Shown piece after piece: positions 39,436-62,197 of a DNA stretch of 64,000 bases. Numbering within the stretch: position 1 is the first letter of the stretch; each line of letters opens with the position of its first letter. Both the position numbers and the translations under genes were made by a program. Under the pieces are notes generated by a model, which searched no databases, had not been told where the DNA came from, and worked only from the letters and a program-made list of their open reading frames with translations. This DNA comes from Candidatus Hydrogenedentota bacterium (lineage in GTDB: Bacteria > Hydrogenedentota > Hydrogenedentia > Hydrogenedentales > JAEUWI01): assembly GCA_034669905.1 (NCBI GenBank), contig JAXMOL010000009.1:1-64000 (forward strand), in the 5' to 3' direction.

Positions 39436-39551
39436 CATTGGGTCAACTATATATCGTGCAACCACGGGCAGGGGTGTCCGGGCAATGGTTGCGTCTCGAG
39501 GCGATATTCAGATATCAGCAGAATAATTGTTGCTTTCTTCCGGGAGTATTC

Positions 39552-40715: not shown

Positions 40716-40819
40716 GCGCTTCTGTGAGGCACAGAAACGCGGTGAAGAACACACGTAAGAGATGCTGACATCCCGGTGGATGACAGAGAAACAGCGAACA
40801 GAAAGGGCATAGGAGCACC

Positions 40820-41323
40820 ATGGCAACACCTAGTAGTCAGAAATTTATTGCTCGCAATAAGGCTCCCCGGGTTCAGATCGAATATGATGTAGAACTCTAT
40901 GGGGCGGAAAAGAAAATCAACCTGCCATTCGTGATGGGTGTCATGGCGGACCTTTCCGGCAAGCCCGCGGAAGAGCTTCCTCCGGTCAGCGATCGCGACC
41001 TCGTGGAGATTGATTCGGAAAACTTTAACAGCCGGCTCAAAGCTATGAAGCCCCGCGTGGCCTTTCAGGTGCCCAATACCCTGTCGGGTGAAGGCAACCT
41101 TTCCGTGGAAATGACCTTTGAGTCCATGGATGATTTCTCGCCCGGGAAAGTGGCCGAAAACGTCGACGAGCTCAATGAGCTCCTGACCGCACGGCGTGAG
41201 CTCTCCGACCTGCTCTCCTATATGGACGGTAAGAGTGGCGCAGAAGATCTGTTGGGTAAAGTGCTCGCGGATAAAGACGCCCTGTCTCAATTGGGCGGTG
41301 ACGCAAGCGAAGGAGGTGAATAA
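40820..41323 (+). CDS. tssB: T6SS contractile sheath small subunit TssB
   Basis: SSQKFIARNKAPRVQIEYDVE, LPFVMGVMADLSG and FESMDDFSP. Confidence 0.97.
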   Translation: MATPSSQKFIARNKAPRVQIEYDVELYGAEKKINLPFVMGVMADLSGKPAEELPPVSDRDLVEIDSENFNSRLKAMKPRVAFQVPNTLSGEGNLSVEMTFESMDDFSPGKVAENVDELNELLTARRELSDLLSYMDGKSGAEDLLGKVLADKDALSQLGGDASEGGE

Positions 41324-41325
41324 CC

Positions 41326-42798: not shown

Positions 42799-42969
42799 TA
42801 GCGATCCCAGGGATACTTCCCGGGGTACGATATGCCAGACAATATTGCCTTGCCAGCTACGCGTGAGCTGGCAAGGTACTTGAATTACACGGTACAATCC
42901 GGTGTAATCCACTGAATCGAATGGTAGCGTGGAATAACCACCAACATATAGCAAAAGGAGATAAATGGG

Positions 42970-43461
42970 ATGGCAAATGCATTCTTCCTGAAAATTGACG
43001 GGGTGACAGGTGAATCGGAAGACGAAAGCCACAAAGGATGGCTGGAGATTTCCGAATTCGGCCAGGAAATGGCCCACGACATTGAAGGCGGTGGTACGCC
43101 TTCCGCAGCCGGTGGTTTCTCGACCGGTGGTGCAACGCTGGAAGTGATTTCCTTCAGCAAGTCTATGGACCGCTCCAGTGTTCAGTTGTTTCAATACTGC
43201 CTGACGGCCAAAGTGATTCCGACGATTACCATCGAAGCGGTACGTCCGACGGAAAAAGCGGAAGTGTACTTCCGCATCACACTGACCAACAGCATCATTG
43301 CCAGCATCAATACCAGCGGTAGCGATGGTGAACTCCCCACGGAAGAAGGCTCCATCGCCTTTACCACCATCAAGTGGGAATACACCATGGTTAAACCCGA
43401 CGGTAAGATGGGCGATACCTTCAGCTCTACCTGGAACCGTCTCACGAACCGCCAGACCTGA
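42970..43461 (+). CDS. hcp: T6SS tube protein Hcp (TssD)
   Basis: FLKIDGVTGESEDESHKGWLEI, FSKSMDRSS and IKWEY. Strong AAGGAG RBS. Confidence 0.95.
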   Translation: MANAFFLKIDGVTGESEDESHKGWLEISEFGQEMAHDIEGGGTPSAAGGFSTGGATLEVISFSKSMDRSSVQLFQYCLTAKVIPTITIEAVRPTEKAEVYFRITLTNSIIASINTSGSDGELPTEEGSIAFTTIKWEYTMVKPDGKMGDTFSSTWNRLTNRQT

Positions 43462-43494
43462 TCCGGCCGGTAATTGTTGTTTAATCTCGCGCTG

Positions 43495-43519
43495 CCGGGC
43501 TTGCATTGTGCAAGCCCGG
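43495..43519 (+). terminator. Stem-loop after hcp (terminator or 3' stabiliser)
   Basis: Perfect 11-bp stem CCGGGCTTGCA-ttg-TGCAAGCCCGG with a weak U tail. Confidence 0.5.
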
Positions 43520-43676
43520 TCGCCTATCTTTCTGCTACCCGTTGCGATGGCGCAAATCGCCCGGTAGTATTCGTTACACGGCAGGTGGTCTCTGAGCCCC
43601 GCAGGTGAGACGGAGCGTGACGGTGGGTGCGGTGCTGTTTCATCTGATGGTCGTGAATTGGAGTGAGGTCTTCCTT

Positions 43677-44174
43677 GTGTACGTTCGATATCTGCCTTCT
43701 CTCATGGACCGACTTACGGACAACGAACCCGCCAAGCGACTGGAAGCGCCCCGACCCCAGGCCATGAGTTTCCAGGAGTACCGTGCCGGATTCCAGCGGG
43801 ATCTCATGCGGCTCCTTTCCTATGGGCTTCAGGCGGCGTCGGACGAATTTGCGGGCTACCCGGAAGTACAGCGTTCCGTGCTGAACTATGGCATGGCCAA
43901 CCTCCTGGGCATGGCCGATATGGCGGCTAAACCCATTGTGGTAGAGCAAAACATCGTCGAAGCGATTCGGCGCTTCGAGCCCCGGGTTAATCGAGACACC
44001 CTCCGCGTGAACGTTTCCCGCAATGAAGTCCCGGGGGAAACCACCATGAAAAACCTGGAAATCGAAATTCAGGCGGAGTTGTGGGCCAAGCCTTATTCGG
44101 AGCACGTCTACCTCTTGACCAGCGTCGACCTGCACAATGCCAGTGTTAAAGTGAAGGAATGGCGCAATGGATAA
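43677..44174 (+). CDS. tssE: T6SS baseplate protein TssE
   Basis: LPSLMDRLTD, SVLNYG and AIRRFEPRV. A GTG start behind GAGG was chosen. Confidence 0.9.
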   Translation: MYVRYLPSLMDRLTDNEPAKRLEAPRPQAMSFQEYRAGFQRDLMRLLSYGLQAASDEFAGYPEVQRSVLNYGMANLLGMADMAAKPIVVEQNIVEAIRRFEPRVNRDTLRVNVSRNEVPGETTMKNLEIEIQAELWAKPYSEHVYLLTSVDLHNASVKVKEWRNG

Positions 44175-46047
44175 GAAATCTGCCAGCCGCCGCCGACTCG
44201 AATACTACAATGAAGAGCTTCAATACCTCCGTGAAGTGGGGGAAGTCTTCGCAAAAGAAAATCCCAAAGTCGCCGGGCGCCTCGGGCTGGAATCCTTCGA
44301 GTGCGCCGACCCCTACGTGGAGCGACTACTGGAAGGTGTGGCATTCCTGACCGCCCGGGTGCGCATGAAACTCGACGACGAGTTTCCCAATTTTACCCAG
44401 AGCCTGGTCGAGACCGTCTACCCCCATTATCTCTGCCCGACACCGTCTATGACCATGGTGCAGTTTCAGCCCGATTTCGCCGAGCCTGCGCTGGATGAGG
44501 GCGTCGTGGTGCCCAAGAACACCGTCATTCGGAGTGGGGGCGGTATTGGCGATGATTTCTCCTGCCAGTATCGCACGGGGCACGATGTGACCCTCTGGCC
44601 CATCTCCCTGGTGGAGGCCCAATACTACACCCGCGAAATAAACTCTCTGGGGCTCCCCGAGCGCCGCGATATGGCCGCGGGCATCCGCCTTCGCCTGCGC
44701 ACCATGGGCGGGCAGCTCTTCAGCGATATTGACCTCAATCGCCTGAATGTGTACATCCGCGGTGGGGGCGATGTGGGCGCCCGGCTCTATGAGGCTATTT
44801 TTTCCCATGGCGTCGGTGTGGTGATGCGACCTGCCACCGATCCCGTGCCCTGGCAGCGGACCCTTTCGGCAGAGCGTATTCGTCAGGTGGGTTTTGATGA
44901 CAAGGATTATCTCCTGCCTTACGGCTCCCGCTCTTTCCAGGGCTATCGACTGCTCCACGAGTATTTCGCTTTTCCGCAGCGCTACATGTTCTTTGAAATT
45001 GGCGGTCTCGGTAAGTATCTGGGCAATGTAATCGCCTCCGAAGTCGATGTATTTATTCTCCTGAAGCAGGGCGATGTGCGGCTTGAGAACGAGGTGGGCC
45101 CGTCCAACTTCGTGTTGAACTGTACGCCCGCCGTCAATCTCTTTCCCATGGAACCCGATCGGGTGGATGTTTCCGACACCCAGTCCCGTTTTCACATTGT
45201 GGGTGATCGGACGCGCCCCCTGGACTACGAAGTTTACCAGGTGAACCAGATTACCGGCTACGGAACCCAGATGGGGGACAAGCAGGTCTTTGAACCCTTT
45301 TATTCGGCCAAGGGCTACGACGCGGAGAGCCGGGCCTACTTCACAACCTATCGCATGCCACGGCGTCTTTCCGAGCGTGAACTCAATCACGGTACCCGCT
45401 CCGGCTATGCCGGCAGTGAGGTGTACGTGTCCCTCGTTGATGCTAACGCGGCACCCTATCGCCCGGATATACGACAGCTCTCGCTCCAGACCCTTTGCAC
45501 CAACCGTGACTTGCCCCTCTTGATGCAGACGGGTATTTCCAATTCCGATTTTGTCATGGACCTGAATGCCCCGATTGAAGGCATTCGCGTTGTGGCCGGG
45601 CCCACGTCGCCCCGGGCGTCTCTGGCGGAAGGGCCCTACACGTGGCGGGTCATCAATCACCTGTCACTCAATTATCTTTCCCTGATGGATACCGAAGAGG
45701 GGGATGCGGCAGCGGCCTTGCGCGAGTTGCTCGGGCTCTATGGCAATGTCTCCGATCCCGGCACACGAAAACAGATTAACACCCTGCAGCGTGTGCAGAG
45801 TGCACCCATTACACGTCGTATTCACGGACCCGGACAAATCGCCTTTGCCCGCGGCCTGGAAATCCTGATTACCATGGACGAAGAGTCCATCGAAGGGGCC
45901 GGTTCATTCCTGCTCGGTGCCGTACTTGAACGGTTCTTTGCGAAACACGTTTCCCTGAATTCCTTCACGGAGACCGTCATACAAACCCCGGAACAAGGAG
46001 AGATCAAGCGTTGGCAAGCGAGAATGGGACAGCGGAAGCTGGTATAA
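44167..46047 (+). CDS. tssF: T6SS baseplate protein TssF
   Basis: YYNEELQYLRE, DPYVERLLEG, YPHYLCPTPS, GYRLLHEYFAFP, CTPAVNLF, CTNRDLP and SLNSFT. Confidence 0.97.
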   Translation: MDKKSASRRRLEYYNEELQYLREVGEVFAKENPKVAGRLGLESFECADPYVERLLEGVAFLTARVRMKLDDEFPNFTQSLVETVYPHYLCPTPSMTMVQFQPDFAEPALDEGVVVPKNTVIRSGGGIGDDFSCQYRTGHDVTLWPISLVEAQYYTREINSLGLPERRDMAAGIRLRLRTMGGQLFSDIDLNRLNVYIRGGGDVGARLYEAIFSHGVGVVMRPATDPVPWQRTLSAERIRQVGFDDKDYLLPYGSRSFQGYRLLHEYFAFPQRYMFFEIGGLGKYLGNVIASEVDVFILLKQGDVRLENEVGPSNFVLNCTPAVNLFPMEPDRVDVSDTQSRFHIVGDRTRPLDYEVYQVNQITGYGTQMGDKQVFEPFYSAKGYDAESRAYFTTYRMPRRLSERELNHGTRSGYAGSEVYVSLVDANAAPYRPDIRQLSLQTLCTNRDLPLLMQTGISNSDFVMDLNAPIEGIRVVAGPTSPRASLAEGPYTWRVINHLSLNYLSLMDTEEGDAAAALRELLGLYGNVSDPGTRKQINTLQRVQSAPITRRIHGPGQIAFARGLEILITMDEESIEGAGSFLLGAVLERFFAKHVSLNSFTETVIQTPEQGEIKRWQARMGQRKLV

Positions 46048-47060
46048 GAAACCGTCTCGCCCGACAGCCCGGCTCGGCAAATTTTTTCCAGGCCATCCGG
46101 CGACTGCAGGGCGAAGAGCCCGGTAAGGCCTTCGTTGGTTTCTCGCACCATCTCCAAGACGATATCGTTCGTTTCGGGCAGAACTTGGGCTTGACCTTCG
46201 AGTCGTCCCCCGTGGAGCGTTTTCTCGAGGATCCGGAGAGTGACGCCCCGCCCAAGATGAGCGTCAATTTCATGGGGCTTCTGGGGCCGGGCGGGCCCCT
46301 GCCGCTCAATATCACGGAATCGCTCTACGAACGGCTGCTCCATGATAAGGATCGGGCGCATCCAGAGTTTCTGGATGCCCTTCAGACCCGCGTTATTTCG
46401 CTCTACTATCGGGCCTGGGCCGAGTGCCAGGCGACCGCGTCGTATGAGCGCACCCGCAATGGTTCCTTTTCCAAGTACGTCTCCAGTCTGGTGGGTATCG
46501 GCTCTGAGAGTTTCATCGAGCGCGATTCTATTCGCGACGATGGCAAGCGCTATTATTCGGCCTGGCTCGCGATGCAGACACGAAACTCCGAAGGGCTATG
46601 TGCCATTTTAGGGGAGTACTTCGGGGTGCCGGCCACGATCGAGCAGTTCGTGGGGCAGTGGATAGACATTCCACAGGATTGCTGCTGTCGTCTGGGAGAA
46701 ACCCGCAGCACCGGTAAGGTTGGCCAGAATCTTATCCTGGGCAGTCGCTATTGGGACCGACAACAGAAATTTCGGGTGCGTCTTGGTGCCATGGATTGGG
46801 AGCGCTATCTCAGCATGTTGCCATCGGGAGACCGGTTGGAGCATTTGATCGATTGGGTGCGAAACTATGTCGGGGAAGAACTCGAGTGGGATGTGTGCCT
46901 GATTCTCAAGCGGGAGGAAGTGCCCCAGACTTGTCTGGGCAGGCAGGGCCAACTTGGCTGGACGACCTGGTTGAAGCGGGAGGATACCACCTTTGACCAC
47001 GATCCGGAAGATCTTCGGATGGACCGAACGACCCTGGTCGCCTGGTTCAGACAGTTGTAA
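46011..47060 (+). CDS. tssG: T6SS baseplate protein TssG
   Basis: FFQAIRRL, FMGLLGPGGPLPL, SLYYRAW, EQFVGQW and LGWTTWL. Confidence 0.95.
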   Translation: MASENGTAEAGIRNRLARQPGSANFFQAIRRLQGEEPGKAFVGFSHHLQDDIVRFGQNLGLTFESSPVERFLEDPESDAPPKMSVNFMGLLGPGGPLPLNITESLYERLLHDKDRAHPEFLDALQTRVISLYYRAWAECQATASYERTRNGSFSKYVSSLVGIGSESFIERDSIRDDGKRYYSAWLAMQTRNSEGLCAILGEYFGVPATIEQFVGQWIDIPQDCCCRLGETRSTGKVGQNLILGSRYWDRQQKFRVRLGAMDWERYLSMLPSGDRLEHLIDWVRNYVGEELEWDVCLILKREEVPQTCLGRQGQLGWTTWLKREDTTFDHDPEDLRMDRTTLVAWFRQL

Positions 47061-47142
47061 AACGTTCCATGTGCGTATACAGTAGGTAGGGTAATCATCG
47101 CAGCGTCTGCAGAAGCAGTGATTTAAATTGAGTGGGTGAATA

Positions 47143-49269
47143 ATGGCTAGAACACAGGATACACGTTGGGCGAGTATTGAAACGCCCCTCGGGAAAGATG
47201 TACTGCTTTTTCGCCGCATGACCGGCGTGGAAGAGTTGGGGCGCATCTTCCAATATGAGCTCGAACTCTGCAGCGAGAATGACAACATCACATTCGACGA
47301 TATCATCGGGCAGAATGTCACGATTCGTATGAACTACACCGATTCGGATGCCCGTTTTATCAATGGCATCATAAGCCGATTCTCGCGCACCCAGGAAGTC
47401 GAAGATCTCACTTACTACCAAGCGACCATTGTTCCCAATCTCTGGTTTCTCACCCGCACCAAAGATTGTCGCATCTACCAGAATATGGATGCCGTCGCCA
47501 TCGTCAAAGATGTGCTGAAAGAAATGGGCATTACCGATGTCGAATACAAGCTCGGCAGTACGACCTATCCCACGCGGGAATTTACGGTCATGTATCGGGA
47601 GTCCTATTTTAATTTCATTTCCCGTTTGCTCGAGCAAGAGGGCATTTACTACTACTTCAAACACGAAGACGGGAAGCATACCCTGGTCCTGATTAATGCC
47701 AGCAGCCTCCATGAAGCCCAACCCGATTTTGAGGAGATGGAGTTCAATCCCCGTGATGCGGGATCCACCGATCAGGACAGCATCTACTACTGGGTCGAAA
47801 TGGGACTCTTTGAAAGCACCAAGTTCTCCTACGCCGACTACAGCCTGGAGACGCCCAAGAACATCATGTTTGGCGAGTCGGAAGTCGCGCGAGGCTATGC
47901 GAAAGATCATCTGGTCCGCTTTGACTACCCCGGGCGCTATTACGAGGCGGGCGACGCCACCAATTACGCCAAATATCGGGCCGAGGAATTTCAGGCCGAC
48001 TACCAGACCTTCAAAGGCGAGTGCATCATTCGTGGTGCGGCGTGCGGCGCCCTCTTCGCCATGACCAATTATCCCCTGGAATCACAAAACACGGACTATA
48101 TCATTACGTCCACCACCATCAATGTCGTAGGTGAAGATTACACGTCGAATCCGGTACAGGAGCAAAAGCTTGACCCCTTCAAATGTTCCTTCACCGCCAT
48201 TCGGAAAACGGAACAGTTCCGCGCCGAGAGTATCACGCCCCTCCCCTTTGTCCACGGGCCCCAAACCGCCATTGTGGTGGGGCCCTCGGGGGATGAGATT
48301 CACACCGATGAGTATGGGCGTATCAAAGTCCAGTTTCACTGGGACCGCTACGGAAACTCCGACGAGAACAGCTCGTGTTTCATTCGGCTCGCGCAAAATT
48401 GGGCCGGGAAAAACTGGGGGGCTGTGACCCTGCCCCGTATCGGGCAGGAAGTGGTTGTGGAGTTTCTGGAAGGAAATCCCGACCGTCCCATCATTATTGG
48501 CTCCCTGTATAACGCCGATAACAAGCCGCCCTATGCCCTGCCCACCAACATGACCATGACCGTCATGAAGAGTAACTCGAGCAAAGGGGGAGAGGGCTTC
48601 AATGAGATCCGCTTTGAGGACAAGAAAGACAGCGAACAGATCTTTGTCCACGGTCAAAAGAACTTCGACAAGCGGATTTTGAATGATTCTTTCACCTGGA
48701 TCGGTAACGATCACCACCTGCAGGTGGTCAACGACCGGAAAGAAAAAGTTGATAATGATAAACATGAAACGGTGGGCCGTGACCATATCGAAGTTATAGA
48801 GCGGGACCACAACCTCACCATCAAGGGGAAAGAGGCTATCAAGATTACGGATAGTCACAGCCACACGGTGGAAGGGGATGTTATTCAGGTCTACAAGAGT
48901 AACCACTCGGAAGAAGTGACCGCCGATTACTACCTCAAGGGCGATAATATCTGTATCGAAGCCGCCACCAATCTCACCATCAAGGTGGGGGACTCCTATA
49001 TCGCCATTGAATCCAGCGGTATTACCATTGGAACGACCGGTGATATCGAGTTGCTGGCCGATGGCGACATCACCAGCGAGTCGGGTGGGGATACCAAGGT
49101 GACGGCCGAGGGAGACGTCAATGTGACGGCCACGGGCGATCTCAATATGGAATCCACCGGCAATACCGCCATCGCTGCCACGGGTACGGCGGAAATGTCC
49201 GGTAGTTCTACCACCGTAAGCGGTGACGGCAACCTGACGCTCGAGGGCGGCATGGTAAGCATTAACTAA
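47143..49269 (+). CDS. vgrG: T6SS spike protein VgrG (no C-terminal effector extension)
   Basis: YRESYFNFISRLLEQEGIYYYF, GPQTAIVVG, DEYGRIKVQFHWDR, PRIGQEVVVEFLEGNPDRP and NEIRFEDKK. It ends in gp5-like beta-strand repeats (...GGMVSIN). Confidence 0.97.
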   Translation: MARTQDTRWASIETPLGKDVLLFRRMTGVEELGRIFQYELELCSENDNITFDDIIGQNVTIRMNYTDSDARFINGIISRFSRTQEVEDLTYYQATIVPNLWFLTRTKDCRIYQNMDAVAIVKDVLKEMGITDVEYKLGSTTYPTREFTVMYRESYFNFISRLLEQEGIYYYFKHEDGKHTLVLINASSLHEAQPDFEEMEFNPRDAGSTDQDSIYYWVEMGLFESTKFSYADYSLETPKNIMFGESEVARGYAKDHLVRFDYPGRYYEAGDATNYAKYRAEEFQADYQTFKGECIIRGAACGALFAMTNYPLESQNTDYIITSTTINVVGEDYTSNPVQEQKLDPFKCSFTAIRKTEQFRAESITPLPFVHGPQTAIVVGPSGDEIHTDEYGRIKVQFHWDRYGNSDENSSCFIRLAQNWAGKNWGAVTLPRIGQEVVVEFLEGNPDRPIIIGSLYNADNKPPYALPTNMTMTVMKSNSSKGGEGFNEIRFEDKKDSEQIFVHGQKNFDKRILNDSFTWIGNDHHLQVVNDRKEKVDNDKHETVGRDHIEVIERDHNLTIKGKEAIKITDSHSHTVEGDVIQVYKSNHSEEVTADYYLKGDNICIEAATNLTIKVGDSYIAIESSGITIGTTGDIELLADGDITSESGGDTKVTAEGDVNVTATGDLNMESTGNTAIAATGTAEMSGSSTTVSGDGNLTLEGGMVSIN

Positions 49270-49283
49270 AGGAGAAACTCGGC

Positions 49284-49829
49284 ATGCCCGATCCCAAAGA
49301 TGGCGAGGCCGGATCCGCGGTGGAGCCGGCAGAGGCCGTTGCGCCGGAGTTGGCCGACGAAGCCGATCCGGGGGCCGTCGCGGAAGTAAAAGCAGAGCAA
49401 ATCGAGGCGCAGACCGGTAAATACGGCACCCAGAAGGTGTCTCCCTATAAGCCGCCCACGGCGGAAGAGCAGCAGGCCGAGGCGAAGAAAGAAGAGAAAA
49501 AGAAAAAGAAGCAGGAAAAGAAGAAGACCGAGGCCGACGAGGAAGTTTCCGAAGAAGCGGCGGAGGAAGAGGCCCTCTTTGAATCCGTAGCCGTGATACA
49601 GGAATCGGCCGTGCAAGTGACCACCGATTGGATCGAGATCGAGTTGGTCGGGATGGATGACAGTCCGGTCGCCGGCATGCCTTATGAAATTACCTTGCCC
49701 GACGGAAAAACGGTCGATAAGGGTACCCTCGATGCCAAGGGAAAAGCGAAATTAATTGGTCTTACATCGGGCGATTGCCAGATTAGCTTCCCGGAACTGG
49801 ACCAGGCCGCCTGGGAAGAGATCGTCTGA
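49284..49829 (+). CDS. VgrG-associated protein with a charged linker and a C-terminal transthyretin-like beta-sandwich
   Basis: Starts 14 bp after vgrG with an AGGAG RBS. C-terminal WIEIELV...PVAGMPYEITLPDG...GTLDAKGKA. Confidence 0.6.
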   Translation: MPDPKDGEAGSAVEPAEAVAPELADEADPGAVAEVKAEQIEAQTGKYGTQKVSPYKPPTAEEQQAEAKKEEKKKKKQEKKKTEADEEVSEEAAEEEALFESVAVIQESAVQVTTDWIEIELVGMDDSPVAGMPYEITLPDGKTVDKGTLDAKGKAKLIGLTSGDCQISFPELDQAAWEEIV

Positions 49830-49899
49830 GCCAGAATCGTAATGTAAATATGAGAAATACCTTGACATGCGCTATTGGTCGCTGTGTACCATGGGTGAC

Positions 49900-49933
49900 G
49901 ATCCCGCGGCGGAGAATTGCGGGATCCTGTTTT
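49900..49933 (+). terminator. Probable terminator between the tail genes and tssJKLM
   Basis: GATCCCGCGG-cggagaa-TTGCGGGATC followed by CTGTTTT. Confidence 0.45.
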
Positions 49934-50053
49934 GATTATTACGGATAACGGCCTTTTTGGGAGGGCCACCCGGGCTGCGCATTCAGGGCTTTTGAGGTCG
50001 AAACAGTTGCGTCGGGTTTTGTGAAGGAGAACAGGTTGTACCGCTGGGCTTGC

Positions 50054-50662
50054 ATGACGACATTGAAGTATGGGGAAGGGATTCCCTCCGGGACTGCCCG
50101 TGCCGTCTTGACGGGTGCCCGACTGCTGTGCCTGCTGACCCTCCTGGCCGTTTCGGCCGGGGCGGTGAGTGGCTGTGCGTCGAAAAAACGGGATGCCTTC
50201 AACGTGAAACTGACCATGGATGTGGATTCTTTCCGAAATCCGCAAACGGGTGAGTTGCCGTCTATCGACGTCGATGTCTTTGCCGCCAATGCCTCGGAAG
50301 AGGGTGTCTTAAAGACCCTTAAGGTTCGAGAATATTTCGATACCGATAATCCCTATCGGGACGGAGTGGATGCCTTCAGTACCCGCTTTACCAACCAGGA
50401 TATCACCCCCAAGAAACTTTCCCGCCGGAGCCACTATTGGAAAGGCTGGAAGCGGAAGGGGGCCAAATCCATCTATATTATTGCGAACTTGCCCGAGCGC
50501 CCGGGGGAAAATCCCGAGTTGGTGCAGACCCGCTCGGTGTTGGCACTGCCGCTGGACCGCAAACTCTGGCCCAACGGATTCTTTACCCCACGTACCCGGA
50601 CCCTGAAGATTCTTATTCTGCCCAGTGGCCTGGTGAGTGAGACGACCCAGCGACGCCAATAG
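50054..50662 (+). CDS. tssJ: TssJ-like T6SS lipoprotein (divergent)
   Basis: Hydrophobic signal ending AVSGC, position directly before tssK-L-M, and IYIIANL. Sequence similarity is weak and the start is uncertain. Confidence 0.55.
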   Translation: MTTLKYGEGIPSGTARAVLTGARLLCLLTLLAVSAGAVSGCASKKRDAFNVKLTMDVDSFRNPQTGELPSIDVDVFAANASEEGVLKTLKVREYFDTDNPYRDGVDAFSTRFTNQDITPKKLSRRSHYWKGWKRKGAKSIYIIANLPERPGENPELVQTRSVLALPLDRKLWPNGFFTPRTRTLKILILPSGLVSETTQRRQ

Positions 50663-50747
50663 GCGAATGCTGAAACGACGCCAAGGAAATCGACTGGCTT
50701 AAGGCTGCCCCCGGCAGCGGCGAGCGCGAAGATAGAGAAAGACAGCG

Positions 50748-52124
50748 ATGACGCAGCATATACACTGGCATGAAGGGCTCTTCCTGCAGCCCCACCACAT
50801 GCAGCAGATGCAACAGAACATCATCACCCAGATCCGCGCCGAGCGCCGGCTGGGTTTTGCCTTTGGCTATGGCGTCATTGAATCCGAACTCTCGGAAGAT
50901 TCCCTGCGCAATATGCTGGTGCAGTTCAAACACCTCCGCGTTATCATGCCCAGTGGCCAGGAAGTGGAATATCCCGCCAGTTCCGACTTGCCCCCACTGA
51001 ATATTCAGAGTTCGTTTGATGCGGGGGCCGAGTCGGTTACCGTCCTTGTCGGTGTGCCCCTCTGGGACGCCAACGGGGCCAACGTCGTGCCCAATGACAG
51101 TGCGGACGGATGGCGCAGCCGACGCATCTATAAGCTCGACGAAATCGAGCGTCCCGATGAAAACACAGGCGTCCATTCGCACCCCATGCTCGTGCGGCGG
51201 GTGAATGCCCGGTTGCTCTTGAGCACCGATGATATCGGCGGACTGGAAGTCTTGCCCCTCGTGCGGATTACCCGTTCCACCGCCGATAGTGCGGGGCTGC
51301 CCTCGCTCGATCCCAATTTTATTCCGCCGTGTATGCTGATCCATGGCTATACCCCCTTGCTCGCCATCGTGCGGGACCTCTCCAATCAGGTCGATGCCAA
51401 CCGCCGTGACCTGGTGACCCGCGTGTCCCGTGGAGGGACCCGGGGGGAGACGGCGCGGGATTCAAAGTTTCAATCCGAGCATATCTTCTTCCTGCAGACC
51501 CTCAACAAATACAGCGGGCGTCTGGCTTCGCTGGTCCGCGCCCCGGGCATCACGCCCTTCGACACCTATTTGACGCTGCGTGACCTGCTGGGTGAATTGG
51601 CAACCCTCGTGCCGGGCTATGACGTTATGGAAGTAACCCATTACGATCATGATCGTCCGGCCGTTGTCTTTGGCGAACTGAGCGACAAGATTCGTGAATT
51701 GCTCCAACTCATTGCCAACCAGAAATTCCGCCGGGTCGAATTCCAGGAAGACGACGAATTCTTCGTGGCCGACCTCAGCGCGGTCGATCTCAGCGAGGCC
51801 TCGGTGTGCTACCTGGCCGTGGAGACCGAGGAAGACCCCCGGACCCTCGTCAAGCTCGTGGAGGCGCAGGACCGCTTCAAGGCCATGGCCAAGAGCAATA
51901 TCCACCAGCGCGTGCGCGGCCTTACCCTGCGCGAAGAGCGCGAGGTGCCCCTCGACCTGCCCGCGCAGCCCGGACTCCATTACTTCCGTATCGAGCAGGA
52001 AGACAATAGGGCCCTGTGGCGACGTATCATCGTGGAGAATGCCATGGCGATCCGCTTCACCGTTTCCGAACCGGTGGACTACAAGTTTACCCTCTACACC
52101 ACCTATACCGACGGGGGCGAGTAG
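50748..52124 (+). CDS. tssK: T6SS baseplate connector TssK
   Basis: IHWHEGLFLQPHHMQQ, LDPNFIPP and YDHD. Confidence 0.93.
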   Translation: MTQHIHWHEGLFLQPHHMQQMQQNIITQIRAERRLGFAFGYGVIESELSEDSLRNMLVQFKHLRVIMPSGQEVEYPASSDLPPLNIQSSFDAGAESVTVLVGVPLWDANGANVVPNDSADGWRSRRIYKLDEIERPDENTGVHSHPMLVRRVNARLLLSTDDIGGLEVLPLVRITRSTADSAGLPSLDPNFIPPCMLIHGYTPLLAIVRDLSNQVDANRRDLVTRVSRGGTRGETARDSKFQSEHIFFLQTLNKYSGRLASLVRAPGITPFDTYLTLRDLLGELATLVPGYDVMEVTHYDHDRPAVVFGELSDKIRELLQLIANQKFRRVEFQEDDEFFVADLSAVDLSEASVCYLAVETEEDPRTLVKLVEAQDRFKAMAKSNIHQRVRGLTLREEREVPLDLPAQPGLHYFRIEQEDNRALWRRIIVENAMAIRFTVSEPVDYKFTLYTTYTDGGE

Positions 52125-52127
52125 ACC

Positions 52128-52850
52128 ATGACCCTGGTAGAGCTGACCGAGCCGCTTTTCCTCTATGTGGGCTGTCTGACCCGCGCAGCGGAGCACAACA
52201 TCCAATTTGAAGTGGAACAGGTGCGCCGGGAAATTGTCAGCATTTTCGCGGAGATGCGTATCAAGGCCGAAGCCCACCCGGCCTTGGCCTACCAGTATGA
52301 CCGGACGATTAACCTGGCCCTCATTTTCTACGTCGACTTTATGATTAAAGAAAGCGACCTCAATATCGCCGATGAATGGGTCGAGCTGGCTTTTGACGAA
52401 CAAGAGCTTGCCGGCGACGAACAGTTCTTTGACCTGCTCGAGCAGACCCTGGCGCAGAATACGGAAGTTGCCCTCCAGCAGCTCACCGTTTTCCGTGAAT
52501 GCCTCCGACTGGGATTCACCGGTTGTTATGCCGACGACTGGAAGTATATCCGGCAGAAACACTCCGACATCGACAATAAGGTATTTGGCGAGCGCTTTGA
52601 GCTATCGGCGCAACTTACGCCCACGGCCTATGAGCATGTGGAAGACAAACCCCTGCCCTTTCGTACGTTGAAGCGATTCAAGTTCGTGCGCTGGGCCATG
52701 GTCGTCCTTATTTTTCTGGTGGTGGCCGTGAATATTGGCCTCTACTATGTGAGCTCGGGCGCCCTGCGCCAGACGCTGAAAGAAATCCAGGAAACCGCGG
52801 AAACGGGCGCGGCCCACGCGATTAATCCTGCCGCTGCGAATAAGGAGTAA
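52128..52850 (+). CDS. tssL: T6SS membrane protein TssL (DotU family), no OmpA domain
   Basis: ALIFYVDFMI, AGDEQFFDLL and CLRLGFTG, with a single C-terminal TM. Confidence 0.9.
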   Translation: MTLVELTEPLFLYVGCLTRAAEHNIQFEVEQVRREIVSIFAEMRIKAEAHPALAYQYDRTINLALIFYVDFMIKESDLNIADEWVELAFDEQELAGDEQFFDLLEQTLAQNTEVALQQLTVFRECLRLGFTGCYADDWKYIRQKHSDIDNKVFGERFELSAQLTPTAYEHVEDKPLPFRTLKRFKFVRWAMVVLIFLVVAVNIGLYYVSSGALRQTLKEIQETAETGAAHAINPAAANKE

Positions 52851-52856
52851 GTACGC

Positions 52857-55800
52857 TTGGGCGCCTTACAGAAAATATACGAGCTCTTCTCCAAAATCGG
52901 TGACCTCAAGATTATGCTGGTCCCGGTGTTCTTTATCCTTGCGGCCATCGGCGGCTTCTGGGAGCAGATCACCGTCTATGTGCACGCATGGTCAATTGTA
53001 CTGCTCATCGTCCTTATTCTGATTGGCGCTGCGGTATACACCTACATCAAACTGGTGAAGCCGTGGCGTGATAGTCGCAAAGCGGCCCAGGTGCCTGGCG
53101 AAGAAGGTGTCGAGGAGGAGGTTCCTGAGATTACCGACGAGGAATTTCGTCGGGCCTTTAAGCTTAAGTTCGACAAGGGCGTGGCTGATCTGGCCGCCTT
53201 CCGGAAAGATTCCGACAAGCTGCCCCTCTATCTCGTCGTGGGCGAGCGCGGCTGTGGTAAATCCGAGGCCATTCGCCGCAGCGGCATTGGCTTCCCCGCC
53301 GGCCTGACCAACACGGAGCAGGGTGTGGGGGGGACGGAGATCCTCGATTGGTGGATTACCAACCGGGGGGTGCTCCTCGATTTGCCGGGTGCCCATTTCT
53401 TCGGGCGGGGGGGCAAGTCCGAGGCCCTCGCGTGGAAGCTCCTTCTGAAGAGTATTGCGGATTTTCGCCCCGCCAGTCCGCTGAATGGCATTATCCTCAC
53501 CTTCTCCTCCGAACAGTTGCTCGCGGACACGGATGAGTCCGTAAGCGCCAAGTCGGCCCGTCTGGTGGAGCACTTTGAAAACATCCACCGTGCCCTCGGC
53601 ACCCAGGTGCCCGTATTTATCATGGTGACCAAGGCCGACCGGCTCTGTGGCTTCCTGGAGTACTTCGGCGACCTCAAAGAAGAGGGCGGCACCGATCAGA
53701 TCTTTGGATGGTCCAACCCCGATGAATTGGAAGAACCCTTCCAGGTGGAAAAATACCGGACGGGTATCGAAGGTATTTTCCAGCGCCTTCGTCAGCGCCG
53801 GGACTCCCTTCTCCAGTATTCCATCGAATCGCGCAGTCTGGCCTATAAACGCCGTGTCCAGGTGAATCATCTCTACGAGTTTCCCCGCAGCTTCCGTCTC
53901 AGCGCGAACCGCCTGGGGGATTATCTCGAACGCATTTTCGAACCCAACTCCTGGTATTGCGATCCCTTCTTTCTGCGGGGGGCTTACTACACCTCTGCCA
54001 TTCAACGTGAGACCGAGCTCGATCCCTCGCTGGCCCGGGCCCTCGAAAAGCCACTGGAAGAGTTGCCCGCCGCACAGGCCCGCCACACAGAAGACAGCTA
54101 TTTCCTCAAGGAAACCTTGAATGATAAGGTCTTCTGCGAGGGCGGATTGGTTACTTGGAACCAGGATCCCCGCTACCAACGGAAACGGTCCCGTGCCCGT
54201 CTCGTGCTCGCTGCGGCCGTATTGCTGGCCCTGTTTACCGCCTTCACCGTCTATAGCTCCATTGTCTGGCAGCAGGAAATGGAGAATAAGCACGATGATT
54301 GGGTGGCCGTAAAGGATTGGCTGCCGGAGAGCGACAATATCGTGGCCCGAAAAGCGGGCTCCTACACCTACAACGGCGGGATCCCGGTGGAGCTCTCGGA
54401 AAAAGTCATCATCCCGGAAGACATGGGAACCCTTGAGCTTTTCGAGATGCCCAAGTTGCTGGAGCAGGGATGGATTCAGGATGTTCGCACCCCCCTCATT
54501 TTCCGTCCCATCGATCTTTTCAATCGCAAGCTCGAAACCGACATGTACGATGCCTACCGGGGCATCTTCGAGTACCGCTATGTGACCCCCCTGGTCGTCG
54601 CGGCGGAGAAGCGCATTCTCGCCGAAGAGGACCACTGGTCCGATGAAGCGACCTATGCCCTGGGGCAATTGCTCCGCATCGAGGCCACGGCGGCAAATCA
54701 GGCACCGACCCTCGGCTCGCAGGACCGCCAGGTCGACCTGGATCACTACTTCAAATTTGTTCTGGATGATTTGAGCCTCTACGCCGATCATGCCAAGGAC
54801 TACAACGATTACGTGCGTGAGATTTACCATGGCGGGGGACGAAAGGCATGGCCGCCTGAGGTGCTGGTGGACGAGAATGCCCGGGAAGGCCTGGAAGGTG
54901 CAACGGAAAGTGGCGTCAAGCAGTTCAAGAAGGCCATGGATTTCTTCGTTTCGAAAGAGGGCGAAGCCTTTGCCGACTTGCGTTTGCTCCTGGATGCCAT
55001 CGTGGCGTTCCGCGATGCCGAGTCCCTCCTGTGGAAGAACGCCCTGTCCAGCGGCGACCCCGATAGCGTGCATCAGATCGACGTAATTCTCAAATCCTGG
55101 CAACACGACGTAGAAGAGTTGTCCAAGCGCCGGGAGGCACTGGATGATGTGCTGGAGAAACTTTTCCAGGATGAAGTGGTTGATATTAAGCTGCTCTGCG
55201 ATCGCCGTCGGGTGGACGTCACGGACCAGGTGGAAGATCGCTACTATATTCTCGAGAAAGAACTGGAGAATGTGAAGCCTGTTCCGGAAGGGGAGACGGA
55301 AGAGCATCACATTGAGGGCGTCAAGGTGACCTTGGCCGCCGATTTGTTAGCCAGTAAGGAGCTTATCAAGACGGAAGTGCAGCAGTATCTTGCTGATTTC
55401 GAAGCGCTCCGGGCCAACCGCGAATACCTGGCCAAGACGGACTACCAGGATTTCCGACGCTACCAGCTGCGTAACCATGTCTACGGCTTCCTTCAGTCCT
55501 CCGATTACGTCGTGGGCGAAGACATCTACGATCCCTTTGATTACCTGCTGGATCTGGAAGAGCTGCAGAAAGCCTTTGACGAAAGCGTCCGGAATATTGC
55601 CGATTTCGACACCAATTCGGACAGCTTCAACAGCGGACGTGAAGCGGCATCCAAGATGCTCAATCTCATCTACCGCCAACAGCGCTTCCGGGTCGTCGAG
55701 CAAATCGTCCAGGCCCTGCCCATTACGACCGGCGATTTCGCCCGCATGGTTTCCTCCCGCGTAGAAGCCCAGTGGCTCGAGCGTCCAGAGATTCCTCTGA

Positions 55801-58145
55801 CGCCCGATGGCGACCTTCACCAGTTTGATGATGGCTACAACACGGAAGTGGTCTACGACCTGCTCACGCTCTGGACCCACATGGACGAAATCCTGCGCCA
55901 GGAGCGGTTGGGTAAAGACAGCCTGCCCGATGTGGAACGTCTGAAGCGGAGTTTCCGGGAAAAAGACCAGGTCTTCAATCACTACATCACGGAGTACATG
56001 AATTATTGGACCCGCACCGTGGATCAGAACACGGAGATGGTGCAATACGGCACGTGGAAAGATTTTCATCAGGAGCTCAGCAACCTCGAAGTTTACAATG
56101 TAAACCACAAGTTGCAGATTCTCTTTGAAACGGCGCTCTACGCCGTCGATATTATTCCGTCCAGCCACCCGGGACAGACCGATGCCCATTTGGACCTGTC
56201 GCTGAAGATGAAGGCCCTGACGGAGGACTTCGACGCCGAGTGTCTCCGTATTCTCAACGCGTGGAAGGCCATCGAGAAGGTCGACCGCGATGTGATGAAC
56301 GAGATCCTGTTGCTCTCCGCAGCGGACTTCAAGTCTCAGTATCTCACCCTGCTCGACAACAATGTAAACAAGGCCAACTTCGGATTCTGGAACAGTCTCT
56401 GCACCCAGGCAGTCCGTCTTCTGGCTGACGAAGGCGAGCATCTTTCCCGCTACTACCTCACGAACCTGGCCACCCGCTACCGGGGCTTCCCGTTGATTAA
56501 CGATGTGGCCACCCCGGCGCTCAGCCCCGAAGGCTTTGACGAAGCGCTTGAGTTGGTTCGACACATCAAGCAGGCACCGAAAGAAGAAGACCCGGACACG
56601 CTCATGGGCGGCGATCGCACGGGCTGGCCGGATGTGGACAAAGAAATTGACCGTCTCCAGGGCGGAAAAGTTCTCCGCACGGAATACGAGCGCGAGTGGT
56701 TTGCCCAGCTGGTGGGTGTGATGGAATTCATCGAGGGCGACGAACCCCTCACCTGTGAGCTCATCGTGCTCCCCCGGGAGAAGCAGGCCGTGCGGCCCCC
56801 CCGATTCCCGGCACCCCAACCGACCCAGAAGGTCTTCGGGGATGCGACGTGGGTCTACCGCTACCTCCGCATCAACGGCGTCGCTTTCAACACGGAACCC
56901 ACGACTTATGTGGTGGGCCACGAAGGCAAGACCTATCCCATGGCACCCGATGCCAATAAGCTGGCCATGCACTTCTACTACACCTCAGAAGACCTGGATC
57001 CAGGCGTGAACAGTTTCGCCCGGCCCAGTGGTGTGGCAGGGCTCGAAATGGACTGGTTGCCGCTGGTGGTCTTGCACATGGGGGATACGGTCGTCCTGGA
57101 AGACAAGAAGACGGCCGCCGTGCCCTTCCGCGTCGTGGACAACGCCGAGCACAAAGACAGCGAGTACTATTACTGGTTGGGATTCCGCTTTAACAAGGAG
57201 ATTCCCGATCTCAAGTCCTGGCCATCGCCCTTCAACTGGCCCCACCTGCGCCGGACCACCCGCGAACTGGGCGGGTTCCTGCCGGACGAAAGCGATGGAA
57301 ACGGCCATCTCTACCCGGAAGCACCCCTCTTGCCCCTGCAGCGGGACGTGGCTGCCGTAGAACGGGTTCAGACCAACGCGAGTATGGTACGTCCCAGTGA
57401 AAAGATAAAACAGGTGGCAACGTCGACGCCGCCGCCGGTTACGTCGACCCCATCGGCCCGGCCCTATGATGCACCGGTACCGGCGCCCACTTCGGCGCCT
57501 GCGGCCGCCATGAGCGCGGAAGAAGAGGCCTTCATCCATGCACCGGCCCTCCCCGCCGATGCTCCGGAAGTCGAAGAATCCGCGCCTATGTCTGCGCCTG
57601 CGCCCGTGGCTGCACCCGCAACGGGCCGCGTGCCCCTCTATTCGCCGGCTGGTGGACATTCCACCGACAACATCTATCAGGCCCCCCGTCCGGAGTCACG
57701 CCCGGCGCGCGGCTATTCCCCATCCACGCGGGGCTATGCGCCCGAGGATGCGCCGGTTATGACACCACCTACCGCCGAAGTGATTGTGAAGTCGCCGCCA
57801 CCGCCGGCCGTGACCGTTACACCCGCCCAACCCGTGGTGCCCGAGACGCCAACCATTCCGGTGGTGGAGCCCGCGACGATTAAGCGCAGCCCACCCGTTG
57901 TGCCCGCACCAGAGCGGCCCCTCTATACCACCGAGGTGACCTTCACCCCGCCCCGCCCCGGCGCGTCCGGGCCGGTACCCCCGGGGGGAGATGCGATAAT
58001 CGGAACGGACGCTCCGGAAGTCCATCAGGAACCCGTGCCGTCGCCCTACACGGTAAAAGAAGGCGCGGGCTACGAAGCGGTCAAGGCTAAAAAAAAAACA
58101 CGGTCGCCGGTGACGCGACGGCCGATGACCCGGGGCCGTCGCTAA
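52857..58145 (+). CDS. tssM: T6SS membrane core protein TssM (IcmF), unusually long, with a Pro-rich C-terminal extension
   Basis: Two N-terminal TMs, YLVVGERGCGKS (Walker A), DWW, PLNGIIL, VFIMVTKAD, FLRGAYYTS and a third TM. TTG start behind TAAGGAG. Confidence 0.9.
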   Translation: MGALQKIYELFSKIGDLKIMLVPVFFILAAIGGFWEQITVYVHAWSIVLLIVLILIGAAVYTYIKLVKPWRDSRKAAQVPGEEGVEEEVPEITDEEFRRAFKLKFDKGVADLAAFRKDSDKLPLYLVVGERGCGKSEAIRRSGIGFPAGLTNTEQGVGGTEILDWWITNRGVLLDLPGAHFFGRGGKSEALAWKLLLKSIADFRPASPLNGIILTFSSEQLLADTDESVSAKSARLVEHFENIHRALGTQVPVFIMVTKADRLCGFLEYFGDLKEEGGTDQIFGWSNPDELEEPFQVEKYRTGIEGIFQRLRQRRDSLLQYSIESRSLAYKRRVQVNHLYEFPRSFRLSANRLGDYLERIFEPNSWYCDPFFLRGAYYTSAIQRETELDPSLARALEKPLEELPAAQARHTEDSYFLKETLNDKVFCEGGLVTWNQDPRYQRKRSRARLVLAAAVLLALFTAFTVYSSIVWQQEMENKHDDWVAVKDWLPESDNIVARKAGSYTYNGGIPVELSEKVIIPEDMGTLELFEMPKLLEQGWIQDVRTPLIFRPIDLFNRKLETDMYDAYRGIFEYRYVTPLVVAAEKRILAEEDHWSDEATYALGQLLRIEATAANQAPTLGSQDRQVDLDHYFKFVLDDLSLYADHAKDYNDYVREIYHGGGRKAWPPEVLVDENAREGLEGATESGVKQFKKAMDFFVSKEGEAFADLRLLLDAIVAFRDAESLLWKNALSSGDPDSVHQIDVILKSWQHDVEELSKRREALDDVLEKLFQDEVVDIKLLCDRRRVDVTDQVEDRYYILEKELENVKPVPEGETEEHHIEGVKVTLAADLLASKELIKTEVQQYLADFEALRANREYLAKTDYQDFRRYQLRNHVYGFLQSSDYVVGEDIYDPFDYLLDLEELQKAFDESVRNIADFDTNSDSFNSGREAASKMLNLIYRQQRFRVVEQIVQALPITTGDFARMVSSRVEAQWLERPEIPLTPDGDLHQFDDGYNTEVVYDLLTLWTHMDEILRQERLGKDSLPDVERLKRSFREKDQVFNHYITEYMNYWTRTVDQNTEMVQYGTWKDFHQELSNLEVYNVNHKLQILFETALYAVDIIPSSHPGQTDAHLDLSLKMKALTEDFDAECLRILNAWKAIEKVDRDVMNEILLLSAADFKSQYLTLLDNNVNKANFGFWNSLCTQAVRLLADEGEHLSRYYLTNLATRYRGFPLINDVATPALSPEGFDEALELVRHIKQAPKEEDPDTLMGGDRTGWPDVDKEIDRLQGGKVLRTEYEREWFAQLVGVMEFIEGDEPLTCELIVLPREKQAVRPPRFPAPQPTQKVFGDATWVYRYLRINGVAFNTEPTTYVVGHEGKTYPMAPDANKLAMHFYYTSEDLDPGVNSFARPSGVAGLEMDWLPLVVLHMGDTVVLEDKKTAAVPFRVVDNAEHKDSEYYYWLGFRFNKEIPDLKSWPSPFNWPHLRRTTRELGGFLPDESDGNGHLYPEAPLLPLQRDVAAVERVQTNASMVRPSEKIKQVATSTPPPVTSTPSARPYDAPVPAPTSAPAAAMSAEEEAFIHAPALPADAPEVEESAPMSAPAPVAAPATGRVPLYSPAGGHSTDNIYQAPRPESRPARGYSPSTRGYAPEDAPVMTPPTAEVIVKSPPPPAVTVTPAQPVVPETPTIPVVEPATIKRSPPVVPAPERPLYTTEVTFTPPRPGASGPVPPGGDAIIGTDAPEVHQEPVPSPYTVKEGAGYEAVKAKKKTRSPVTRRPMTRGRR
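58089..58098 (+). other. A10 homopolymer containing A_AAA_AAC, a candidate slippage site joining tssM to the downstream Ig ORF
   Basis: GCT AAA AAA AAA ACA in the tssM frame. The -1 frame has no stop from 58091 until the TAG at 59492-59494. Confidence 0.6.
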
Positions 58146-59494
58146 CCCTCGTTGATGTGACCGTGACGGAGTCCCCCGAAATGGCGGGGGACCAGCGCCT
58201 GGCCAATCCCGCGCTGTTGAATCAATACAGCCGCCCCGAGGTGGTTGTCCGCAAAGGACCCGGCCAGCCCGGTGTGACCAATGCGCTCCCCATCGTTTTC
58301 GATGTGGTCTTTGAAGAGCCTGTCGTGGATTTTCCGGTCGGTTTCAACGTGCCTGGGCTCCTCTTCACCGGAAGCGCTGCCGGCCTTCATTATGAAGTGA
58401 CGGGGCAGAGGGCCTTTTACCAGGTCACTATCCGTTCCATCGAGCAAGATGGGGACGTGGCACTCGCCATTCCGGCTGCGTTGACCGCTGACCTTTTTGG
58501 CAATGTGAACCGGGCTTCCGTGGACGATGGTGCCCTGGTGCACTACGATGCCACCCGCCCCCAATGTGTCATACAAAGCGACCAGGAAGGGGTGATGAAC
58601 GAGGCCCAGATGAATATCGCGCTGGTTTTTTCCGAGCCGGTTTTTGGACTTCGTGATGATGCCCTCACCTTGGAGAACGCTACCGTGGCCCGTACCGCCG
58701 GACAGGATGGGGATACCCGGTATCATTTCGCCGTGACGCCCCGTGCAGATGGGGTGACGGCCCTGACTGTGCCTGAGGATGCGGTAGTCGATGCGACCGG
58801 CAACGGCAACGAGGCATCCCCGGTATTCTCCCTGGTGGTGGACAGCAATGGCCCGGAGGTGACGCTGAGTTCCTTCGAGACGCCCCAGGCGAGCAATAGC
58901 TGGGTCATACGCGTCCATGCCGTGTTTACGGAGCCCACCTTCGACCTGGAGAAAAGCGATGTGGCCGTACGGGGGGGCACCCTGCTCAACTTTACGCGCC
59001 GGGAAGATGGGATGACCTTCGTCTTTGACGTGAAGCCAACGGGAGATGAAGTCCTGCTGGCTATTCCAGAAGGGGTAGCCCGGGATGCCATCGGCAATCC
59101 CAATGCGGCCTCAGAGCGCTTTGTGCGGCAGATTGATCGGACGCGACCCACGGTCGCTATCGACGTTCCCGACACGGCGAAAGATGCGACGGGTGCTATC
59201 GCGGTCACGCTCAGGTTTTCGGAGCCGGTATTTTCTCTCGCGCCCGATTTACTCCAGGTCACCCGTGGTGTTGCCCATCGTGTGGGTGGGGAAGAGGGGG
59301 ATGATACCTTCCACTACCAGGTGTCCCCCGCGGGAAGCCGCCCGATCGAATTGCGCGTTGCGTCCGGCGCGGCGCGGGATCTGGCAGGAAATCTGAATCA
59401 AGGCCGTTCCCTTCGCGTTACCCCGTCAGCGCGCCGCCCAGAGGCTTCCATAGCGGAGGGGCTGCAGGAGGCCGCACCGCCATTGCGCCCCTAG
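58091..59494 (+). CDS. Four bacterial Ig-like (Big_12/Big_13-like) domains, probably the frameshifted C-terminus of TssM (first in-frame start is GTG 58157)
   Basis: Four repeats of P.V....F(S/T/E)EP...D..GN. No signal peptide and no clear RBS at 58157. Confidence 0.75.
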   Translation, partial: KKNTVAGDATADDPGPSLTLVDVTVTESPEMAGDQRLANPALLNQYSRPEVVVRKGPGQPGVTNALPIVFDVVFEEPVVDFPVGFNVPGLLFTGSAAGLHYEVTGQRAFYQVTIRSIEQDGDVALAIPAALTADLFGNVNRASVDDGALVHYDATRPQCVIQSDQEGVMNEAQMNIALVFSEPVFGLRDDALTLENATVARTAGQDGDTRYHFAVTPRADGVTALTVPEDAVVDATGNGNEASPVFSLVVDSNGPEVTLSSFETPQASNSWVIRVHAVFTEPTFDLEKSDVAVRGGTLLNFTRREDGMTFVFDVKPTGDEVLLAIPEGVARDAIGNPNAASERFVRQIDRTRPTVAIDVPDTAKDATGAIAVTLRFSEPVFSLAPDLLQVTRGVAHRVGGEEGDDTFHYQVSPAGSRPIELRVASGAARDLAGNLNQGRSLRVTPSARRPEASIAEGLQEAAPPLRP

Positions 59495-59975: not shown

Positions 59976-59984
59976 TCTCTTCGC

Positions 59985-62171: not shown

Positions 62172-62197
62172 CGTAGCGATTCACTTTGCTTCTCGGT

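Follow-up and report, generated by a model that had tools for sequence, protein, structure and literature searches.

A conserved run of adenines at the end of tssM as a probable recoding site that would add Ig-like domains to some TssM subunits in a genus of Hydrogenedentota

Introduction

Why does the tssM gene of a type VI secretion system (T6SS) end in a run of ten adenines, with a long open reading frame (ORF) of immunoglobulin (Ig)-like repeats directly behind it in the -1 frame? The question was raised by a stretch of DNA of 64,000 nucleotides (here called the window), which forms the first part of contig C9 (JAXMOL010000009.1) in a 7.44-Mb genome of 59% GC from a Candidatus Hydrogenedentota bacterium (GCA_034669905.1). 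The original prediction, made from the letters of the window, was that one extra A in the run, or a -1 shift of the ribosome on it, would join TssM to four Ig-like domains. Here we report that the run and the split are conserved throughout the genus and that recoding at the tract, by either the polymerase or the ribosome, is judged from these comparisons to be very likely.

Two lengths of TssM from one gene have been described before. In Citrobacter rodentium, an A11 run in the tssM1 gene of the CTS1 cluster gives 20-25% one-A insertions, with both forms and their ratio being needed, and the shift ratio in the two tssM genes tested was 15-25% (PMC4256274). Slippage of this kind is also known from two-ORF dnaX genes with A9-A10 runs, and realignment has been described for dnaX of Thermus thermophilus (PMC3711429). 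TssM itself is a multi-copy subunit: the TssJLM complex of enteroaggregative Escherichia coli (EAEC) contains ten copies, the C-terminus of which is periplasmic by cryo-electron microscopy and reported to be surface-exposed in wild-type cells (PMC6517824).

Results

The A run and its conservation in the genus

The A10 tract at 58089-58098 is the sole plus-strand A run longer than six in the window, and one of only five A10/T10 runs in the whole genome. In the tssM frame it is read as three AAA lysine codons, after which 15 codons remain, while in the -1 frame a TAA stop (58088-58090) lies at the start of the tract and the frame is open from 58091 (Table 1). The original prediction had placed the tract, the stops of the two frames and the open -1 frame correctly, and its figure of ~2,212 residues for the shifted product agrees with the 2212 aa that we computed upon insertion of one A. 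Its heptamer, A_AAA_AAC, needs correction, as that phase belongs to the -1 frame; in the frame of tssM the tract reads A_AAA_AAA.

The genome holding the window (G000) was compared with eight relatives (G001-G008), all uncultured marine bacteria of a single genus. All nine genomes have the invariant T followed by A10 (A9 in G003), a -1 frame TAA and, in that same frame, the Ig ORF; none has a fused gene. The alignment of orthologues, which the original prediction had put forward as a check, thus speaks in its favour. The junction sits on a separate contig in G006, and the eight full tssM genes were used for codon controls. TssM identity across the genus is 63-97% and four-fold sites differ by 0.21-0.61. 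The tract lysines are all encoded by AAA in each of the eight full genes, whereas this holds for only one of the 28 other invariant lysine columns. An invariant T in third position occurs at two of 1690 ungapped columns; the T before the tract is one of them, and it lies under five different amino acids. Among filtered long ORFs genome-wide, three of 210 Lys-Lys-Lys triplets are all-AAA, against ~16 expected from codon use, which shows that runs of this kind are avoided in the genome. In G003 the run was reduced to A9 by substitution, leaving the frame unchanged. Five further TssM sequences from databases were aligned, and all end in the same three lysines and a short tail. Two Logan contigs from two studies span the tract without a gap, although one of them may represent the source sample and contigs lose rare variants.

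The segment that is read in both frames was then considered (58098-58145). Second positions of the tssM frame vary at 4/70 sites in the overlap versus 62/131 past the stop (p 2e-10). Third positions vary at 15/70 versus 130/258 in the linker (p 1e-5, three of four pairs); against the nearest 50 nt alone (22/68) this difference is not significant (p 0.18). Both frames of the overlap thus look constrained, and the arginine-rich tail of the short form, which the original prediction had described as off-frame-looking, appears to be under constraint itself.

The Ig-like frame

A search with Big_12 (PF19078) matched the Ig frame at E 5.8e-34, with 116.8 bits against a gathering threshold of 27, in three significant stretches, and counting the repeat motif gave four Big_12 Ig-like repeats in G000, the number originally predicted. 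Four repeats are also found in G004, G005 and G007, and three in G001, G002, G003, G006 and G008. A single-sequence fold of the Ig frame reached a mean predicted local distance difference test score (pLDDT) of only 33.7, so the domain count rests on Pfam and the motif repeats, and a sequence search of the Protein Data Bank (PDB) with the Ig frame returned no match at E 1. The Big_12 homologues listed are large secreted or surface proteins. Elsewhere in the genome, a 5097-codon ORF on contig C42 (~61000-74500) with many Big_12-like repeats is the closest in-genome relative of the Ig frame (~32-37%), and is a possible source of the Ig repeats.

The ratio of non-synonymous to synonymous differences (pN/pS, four genome pairs) was 0.26 just past the tssM stop, 0.11 at the conserved RLxNP..NQ..RP motif (~58196-58240) and 0.13 in the body of the frame. 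This pattern of substitution indicates that the Ig frame is under purifying selection, and hence that it is translated. No hydrophobic segment or signal peptide was found in it. Initiation within the frame itself was also examined. G003 is devoid of ATG, GTG or TTG in the first 74 codons of the Ig frame, and in G001, G002, G006 and G008 the first such codon comes no earlier than codon 54, past the conserved motif at codon 38; five of the nine genomes are therefore without such a codon ahead of RLxNP. The original prediction had the Ig ORF lacking a signal peptide and a clear ribosome-binding site. The absence of a signal peptide stands, as does that of any conserved start or binding site, whereas in G000 itself an ATG at codon 31, which is not conserved, is preceded by a moderate Shine-Dalgarno (SD)-like match of -6.1 kcal/mol; matches at ten neighbouring genes span -2.9 to -14.5. 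A CTG at the leucine of RLxNP has a strong SD-like match in G000, G003 and G007.

The unshifted product

Hydropathy gives three transmembrane (TM) helices in TssM (aa 17-35, 42-60 and 449-467), and an IcmF-related N domain is found at aa 190-452 (PF14331, E 3.5e-45). The equivalog cut-off of TIGR03348 was missed (229 versus 388 bits, over aa 43-477 only), which places the protein in a divergent TssM subfamily and not with the canonical equivalog, and Pfam IcmF_C gave no match in this TssM. We used AlphaFold2 (AF2) with 53 sequences to model aa 1150-1470 (pLDDT 88). Among 48161 chains the best structural match of the model was the C-terminal domain of EAEC TssM, 4y7m_C (Z 8.1, root-mean-square deviation 5.3, 196 aligned residues), followed by 6hs7_A (Z 6.6), with the next unrelated chain at Z 6.0; Foldseek with the same model gave a weak match (4y7o at E 0.049). 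Among the 52 proteins matching aa 1150-1470, 21 of full size align up to aa 1456-1467 and end at most 20 residues beyond, and the IcmF N domain was present in all eight of these that were scanned. The region that follows (aa 1466-1762) is 20% proline and 13% alanine.

The model and the ends of the homologues support the unshifted 1762-aa product as a complete TssM including its C-terminal domain, in keeping with the contrast to Citrobacter drawn in the original prediction. As the short form already holds this domain, the shift would append foreign domains rather than rescue TssM. In both topology and C-terminal fold the protein is like TssM of the EAEC TssJLM complex (PDB 4Y7M, 6HS7), but EAEC TssM ends ~20 residues past the domain, whereas here 300 or 750 further residues follow, depending on the form (PMC6517824). 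A distant TssM, P0168 (1681 aa), carries ~200 extra C-terminal residues that resemble, by eye, a second copy of the beta-domain.

Further genes with A runs

A second gene of the same kind lies on contig C17, where A10 separates a tetratricopeptide repeat (TPR) domain from a 365-codon part with a Cys motif and a membrane segment, as it separates the two frames at tssM. The gene is split at an A9-A11 run in all nine genomes of the genus. One added A would restore the frame in eight of them, while G007 requires one fewer or two more; the copy in G006 has an additional break downstream. Unlike at tssM, the T before the run is not invariant. Pfam, NCBIfam and the Atlas gave no usable match for the second half of the gene. 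In relatives outside the genus the gene is in frame and devoid of an A run (6/6 family members inspected). Across the order, 51 genomes from outside the genus gave a match, and in 49 of these the TPR domain is part of a 456-700-aa frame, the two exceptions being an in-frame contig end and a weak 180-aa match. The C17 gene thus serves as a natural control for tssM, and shows what appears, from these alignments, to be a recoding site that arose in a single genus out of an ordinary fused gene.

On contig C10, a third gene has T-A10 in frame in G000, G004 and G007, and T-A9 out of frame in G005; the tract is absent from G001, G002, G003 and G008, and the contig of G006 ends there. Slippage at this site would free the PF06439 domain alone. 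With A runs at domain boundaries of all three genes, the genus seems to have gained such runs and to keep two of them out of frame.

G008, which is a closed genome, has just two A10 runs, those of tssM and the C17 gene. A genome scan for splits at A/T runs of at least seven recovered the C17 gene as its only A run of eight or more; it missed tssM because of a codon-bias filter, and is thus not exhaustive. A9-or-longer runs outside the known sites, at 21 loci in G008 and 16 in G003, were inspected by frame lengths and gave no further clear chromosomal split, insertion sequence (IS) copies aside. These copies are six IS3-like elements in G008 (L085, L087, L088, L095, L099 and L100), with A9 at the ORF junction and a -1 direction. 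No A run of at least eight was found in dnaX of the genus (8 loci scanned).

The T6SS cluster and neighbouring genes

tssM lies directly 3' of tssK-tssL and closes the T6SS cluster. Hidden Markov model (HMM) matches from Pfam and NCBIfam support tssA, tssB, tssC, hcp, tssE, tssF, tssG, vgrG, tssK and tssL. The TssJ-like lipoprotein (50021-50662) gave no match in the HMM searches, and was assigned by gene position, by a cysteine that looks by eye like that of a lipobox, and by a weak lead from the Atlas. A ClpV-like gene on another contig scored slightly below the family cut-off. Gene order is kept in the seven relatives examined, as far as their contigs extend. Within the class, tssM was detected in nine of 133 genomes, all belonging to this genus, and was not found with the queries used in the other 124. 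Searching metagenomes with the TssM C-terminal region gave three weak loci that look unrelated, and six loci obtained from genome contigs matched genomes already in the data set.

In G004 (L121:8001-8267) and G007 (L119:8001-8252) an extra ORF of ~85-90 codons between tssL and tssM resembles the N-terminal TM hairpin of TssM, with a possible counterpart in G002 (L013:1077-1346). On the 3' side of the Ig ORF (59634-62866) lie an ORF of 113 aa, then an amidohydrolase-like gene and a gene with a peptidoglycan-binding domain. The relatives examined share this order, and the three are possible T6SS accessories. Divergent from the cluster, the minus strand at 25994-39013 encodes a 4339-aa, secreted-looking protein with cadherin-like, Big_9, DUF11 and EF-hand repeats.

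Table 1. Positions of the slip site, the two reading frames and the associated features; coordinates are those of the window unless another contig is given.
Feature	Position	Strand	Description
Slip site	58088..58098	+	Invariant T then A10 (A9 in G003); supported by 9/9 genomes and codon controls
tssM, unshifted product	52857..58145	+	1762 aa; slip site at codon 1745
-1 frame ORF	58091..59494	+	467 open codons: spacer, RLxNP..NQ..RP motif, four Big_12 repeats, short Pro-rich end
Two-frame overlap	58098..58145	+	Basic 15-aa tail of short form and start of Ig frame; reduced variation at both codon positions
TssM C-terminal helical and beta domain	56412..57248	+	aa 1186-1464; from AF2 model, structural match and homologue ends
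Pro/Ala-rich linker	57252..58088	+	~280-300 aa past the TssM core; poorly conserved save for a short block near its end
T6SS cluster	39438..52850	+	tssA, tssB, tssC, hcp, tssE, tssF, tssG, vgrG, 181-aa ORF, TssJ-like lipoprotein, tssK, tssL
Second split gene (TPR and Cys-motif membrane part)	G000:C17:24372-25885 (L039:3373-4886)		A10 at 24786-24795
Third gene	G000:C10:126364-126373 (L040:4365-4374)		T-A10 in frame between PF06439 domain and DUF7133/HEAT/cytochrome c part

Discussion

From the sequence, its conservation, the selection on it and its domain content, we infer slippage in vivo, the machine responsible, the ratio of products, their co-assembly and their function, as follows. Most transcripts would keep A10 and yield the complete TssM of 1762 aa with its long proline-rich linker and short basic tail. 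In a fraction of transcripts the RNA polymerase would realign on the A run and add one A, and the linker would then run on, in a TssM of 2212 aa, into four Ig-like domains, a number that is three in half the genus. The topology of TssM would bring these domains to the periplasmic side, and the ten-copy membrane complex would be a mixture in which a minority of subunits carry the Ig extension. Transcriptional slippage is the machinery that we consider probable. We favour it because the runs are at least nine long, no conserved SD or RNA structure accompanies them, the G007 allele of the C17 gene is shifted in the opposite direction, and tssM1 provides a precedent; both the direction of the shift and the length of the run agree with C. 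rodentium tssM1 and Yersinia pseudotuberculosis tssM3. Runs of nine or more match the RNA-DNA hybrid of 8-9 bp (PMC6260861), and both the rule of An, n>7, for realignment and the use of opposite-direction alleles as a criterion have been set out before (PMC3711429).

Several observations weigh against this account, and they are considered here together with the explanations that they would favour. The nine genomes are related, amounting to some five to six well-separated lineages. No fused TssM was seen among the eight close database TssM clusters (seven of full length, 1735-1762 aa, and one partial; lengths to 3084 aa were searched), and an in-frame TssM-Big_12 (PF14331-PF19078) protein was absent among the 120 longer Big_12 homologues listed, which leaves the TssM-Ig fusion without a natural fused counterpart. 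The run could instead be a site of -1 ribosomal frameshifting, with two tRNA-Lys slipping on A_AAA_AAA to give the same proteins as a one-A insertion would. All nine genomes have the heptamer in phase; the direction is -1 in all nine at tssM and in eight of nine at the C17 gene; a strong hairpin follows the tract in G000, and an invariant 8-nt G/C block lies ~40-50 nt downstream. In some IS elements A_AAA_AAA has been proven to act as a ribosomal site, and stimulators are not obligatory in bacteria (PMC4066793); the IS3-like copies of G008 belong to a family with such a site. On the other side, the folding score downstream of the tract is z -3.55 in G000 only and -0.27 to 1.40 in the other eight, and neither a conserved RNA structure up- or downstream of the tract (consensus energy -1.45) nor a conserved SD near it was found in the nine genomes, so that a conserved stimulator is lacking. 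The invariant G/C block falls within the two-frame overlap, the stronger motif A_AAA_AAG is unused, and the runs at tssM and C17 are always at least nine, never the 6-7 A that would suffice for a heptamer. We thus regard ribosomal frameshifting as unlikely, though it is the likeliest of the rivals.

The tract could also be a contingency locus at the DNA level, with most cells in the A10 state (Ig off) and rare A11 cells making only the fusion. Surface-related genes are typical targets of such phase variation, and tract length does differ between species at C17 (A9, A10 and A11) and at C10 (A10 in frame in three genomes, A9 out of frame in G005). Yet none of the nine genomes and none of the eight close database clusters shows the on state, and the purifying selection on the Ig frame, strong in every lineage, would be hard to maintain if the frame were rarely expressed; G003 altered its run length and not its frame, and the contigs bridging the tract show no indel, with the proviso that contigs drop rare variants. 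With the on state absent from every genome and the Ig frame selected nonetheless, phase variation seems very improbable. Nor is it much easier to see the Ig frame as a separate gene, translated by coupling or from its own start, the A run merely encoding Lys-Lys-Lys. In G000, G004, G005 and G007 an ATG or GTG does occur at codons 23-31 of the Ig frame, close to where tssM stops, and the G000 ATG and the CTG of three genomes have the SD-like matches given above. The other five genomes, however, offer no ATG, GTG or TTG ahead of the motif, selection begins directly past the tssM stop, the frame has no signal peptide, and neither the invariant AAA codons nor the C17 split would be explained; this reading, too, is very improbable. 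An error of assembly or sequencing in a truly fused gene, which the original prediction had raised, would be in character for homopolymers in metagenome assemblies. The recurrence of the split in nine assemblies made independently, including one closed into a single contig, the Logan contigs of two studies that bridge the tract, and the constraint on the short-form tail leave it a negligible chance.

The site resembles C. rodentium tssM1 and Yersinia pseudotuberculosis tssM3 in that an A9-A11 run within tssM, with one added A, gives two product lengths, and in that a stop lies a few codons past the run; neither an SD nor RNA structure was needed there (PMC4256274). In tssM1 and tssM3, though, the site is near codon 800 and divides a truncated from a canonical TssM, the short variant being without the C-terminal TssJ-binding domain, whereas here it follows a complete domain and a proline linker, and the short form has the domain (PMC4256274). 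The present site also belongs to a different phylum and is conserved genus-wide, and no further slippery sites in tssM genes were found in that study (PMC4256274). As in dnaX, an A10 run joins adjacent ORFs and would set subunit stoichiometry in a multi-copy machine, but the long form of dnaX is the ancestral full-length protein, unlike here (PMC3711429). The repeats, of ~100 aa, are like those of other Big_12 proteins, from which the Ig frame differs in having no signal peptide of its own.

Having no export signal, the Ig repeats would leave the cytoplasm only as part of TssM. By analogy with EAEC TssM, they may be displayed at the surface, and with shift rates such as those measured in the two tssM genes some two subunits in ten may carry the extension, which is perhaps all that fits. 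The label 'adhesin' is owed to the company that Big_12 keeps in other proteins; the ligand of the repeats may be a target outside the cell, or peptidoglycan or a partner in the periplasm. A tentative and rather doubtful extension of this account is that A10 slippage serves as a dedicated isoform switch at only two or three chromosomal genes, and that at tssM a minority of the ten subunits thereby gains a long tether with Ig domains at its end, which extend out through the secretion channel to the cell surface and grip a target cell or a surface; the T6SS would then carry an adhesin of its own, rationed by recoding.

Slippage in tssM was known already. The literature searched, which included few subscription papers, yielded no report of a T6SS in this phylum, of Ig-like domains on a TssM, or of slippage by which an already complete TssM gains foreign domains. 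The site bears on why two lengths of TssM are needed, a question that dates from the 2014 study, which found slippery tssM genes to be rare (PMC4256274). An independent origin in another phylum, with the run placed elsewhere in tssM and its logic inverted, suggests repeated selection for mixed TssM rings. Recoding at this locus would determine how many accessory domains a secretion machine carries, in a form that can be tested directly, and the Ig extension is a tag-like probe for the destination of the TssM C-terminus.

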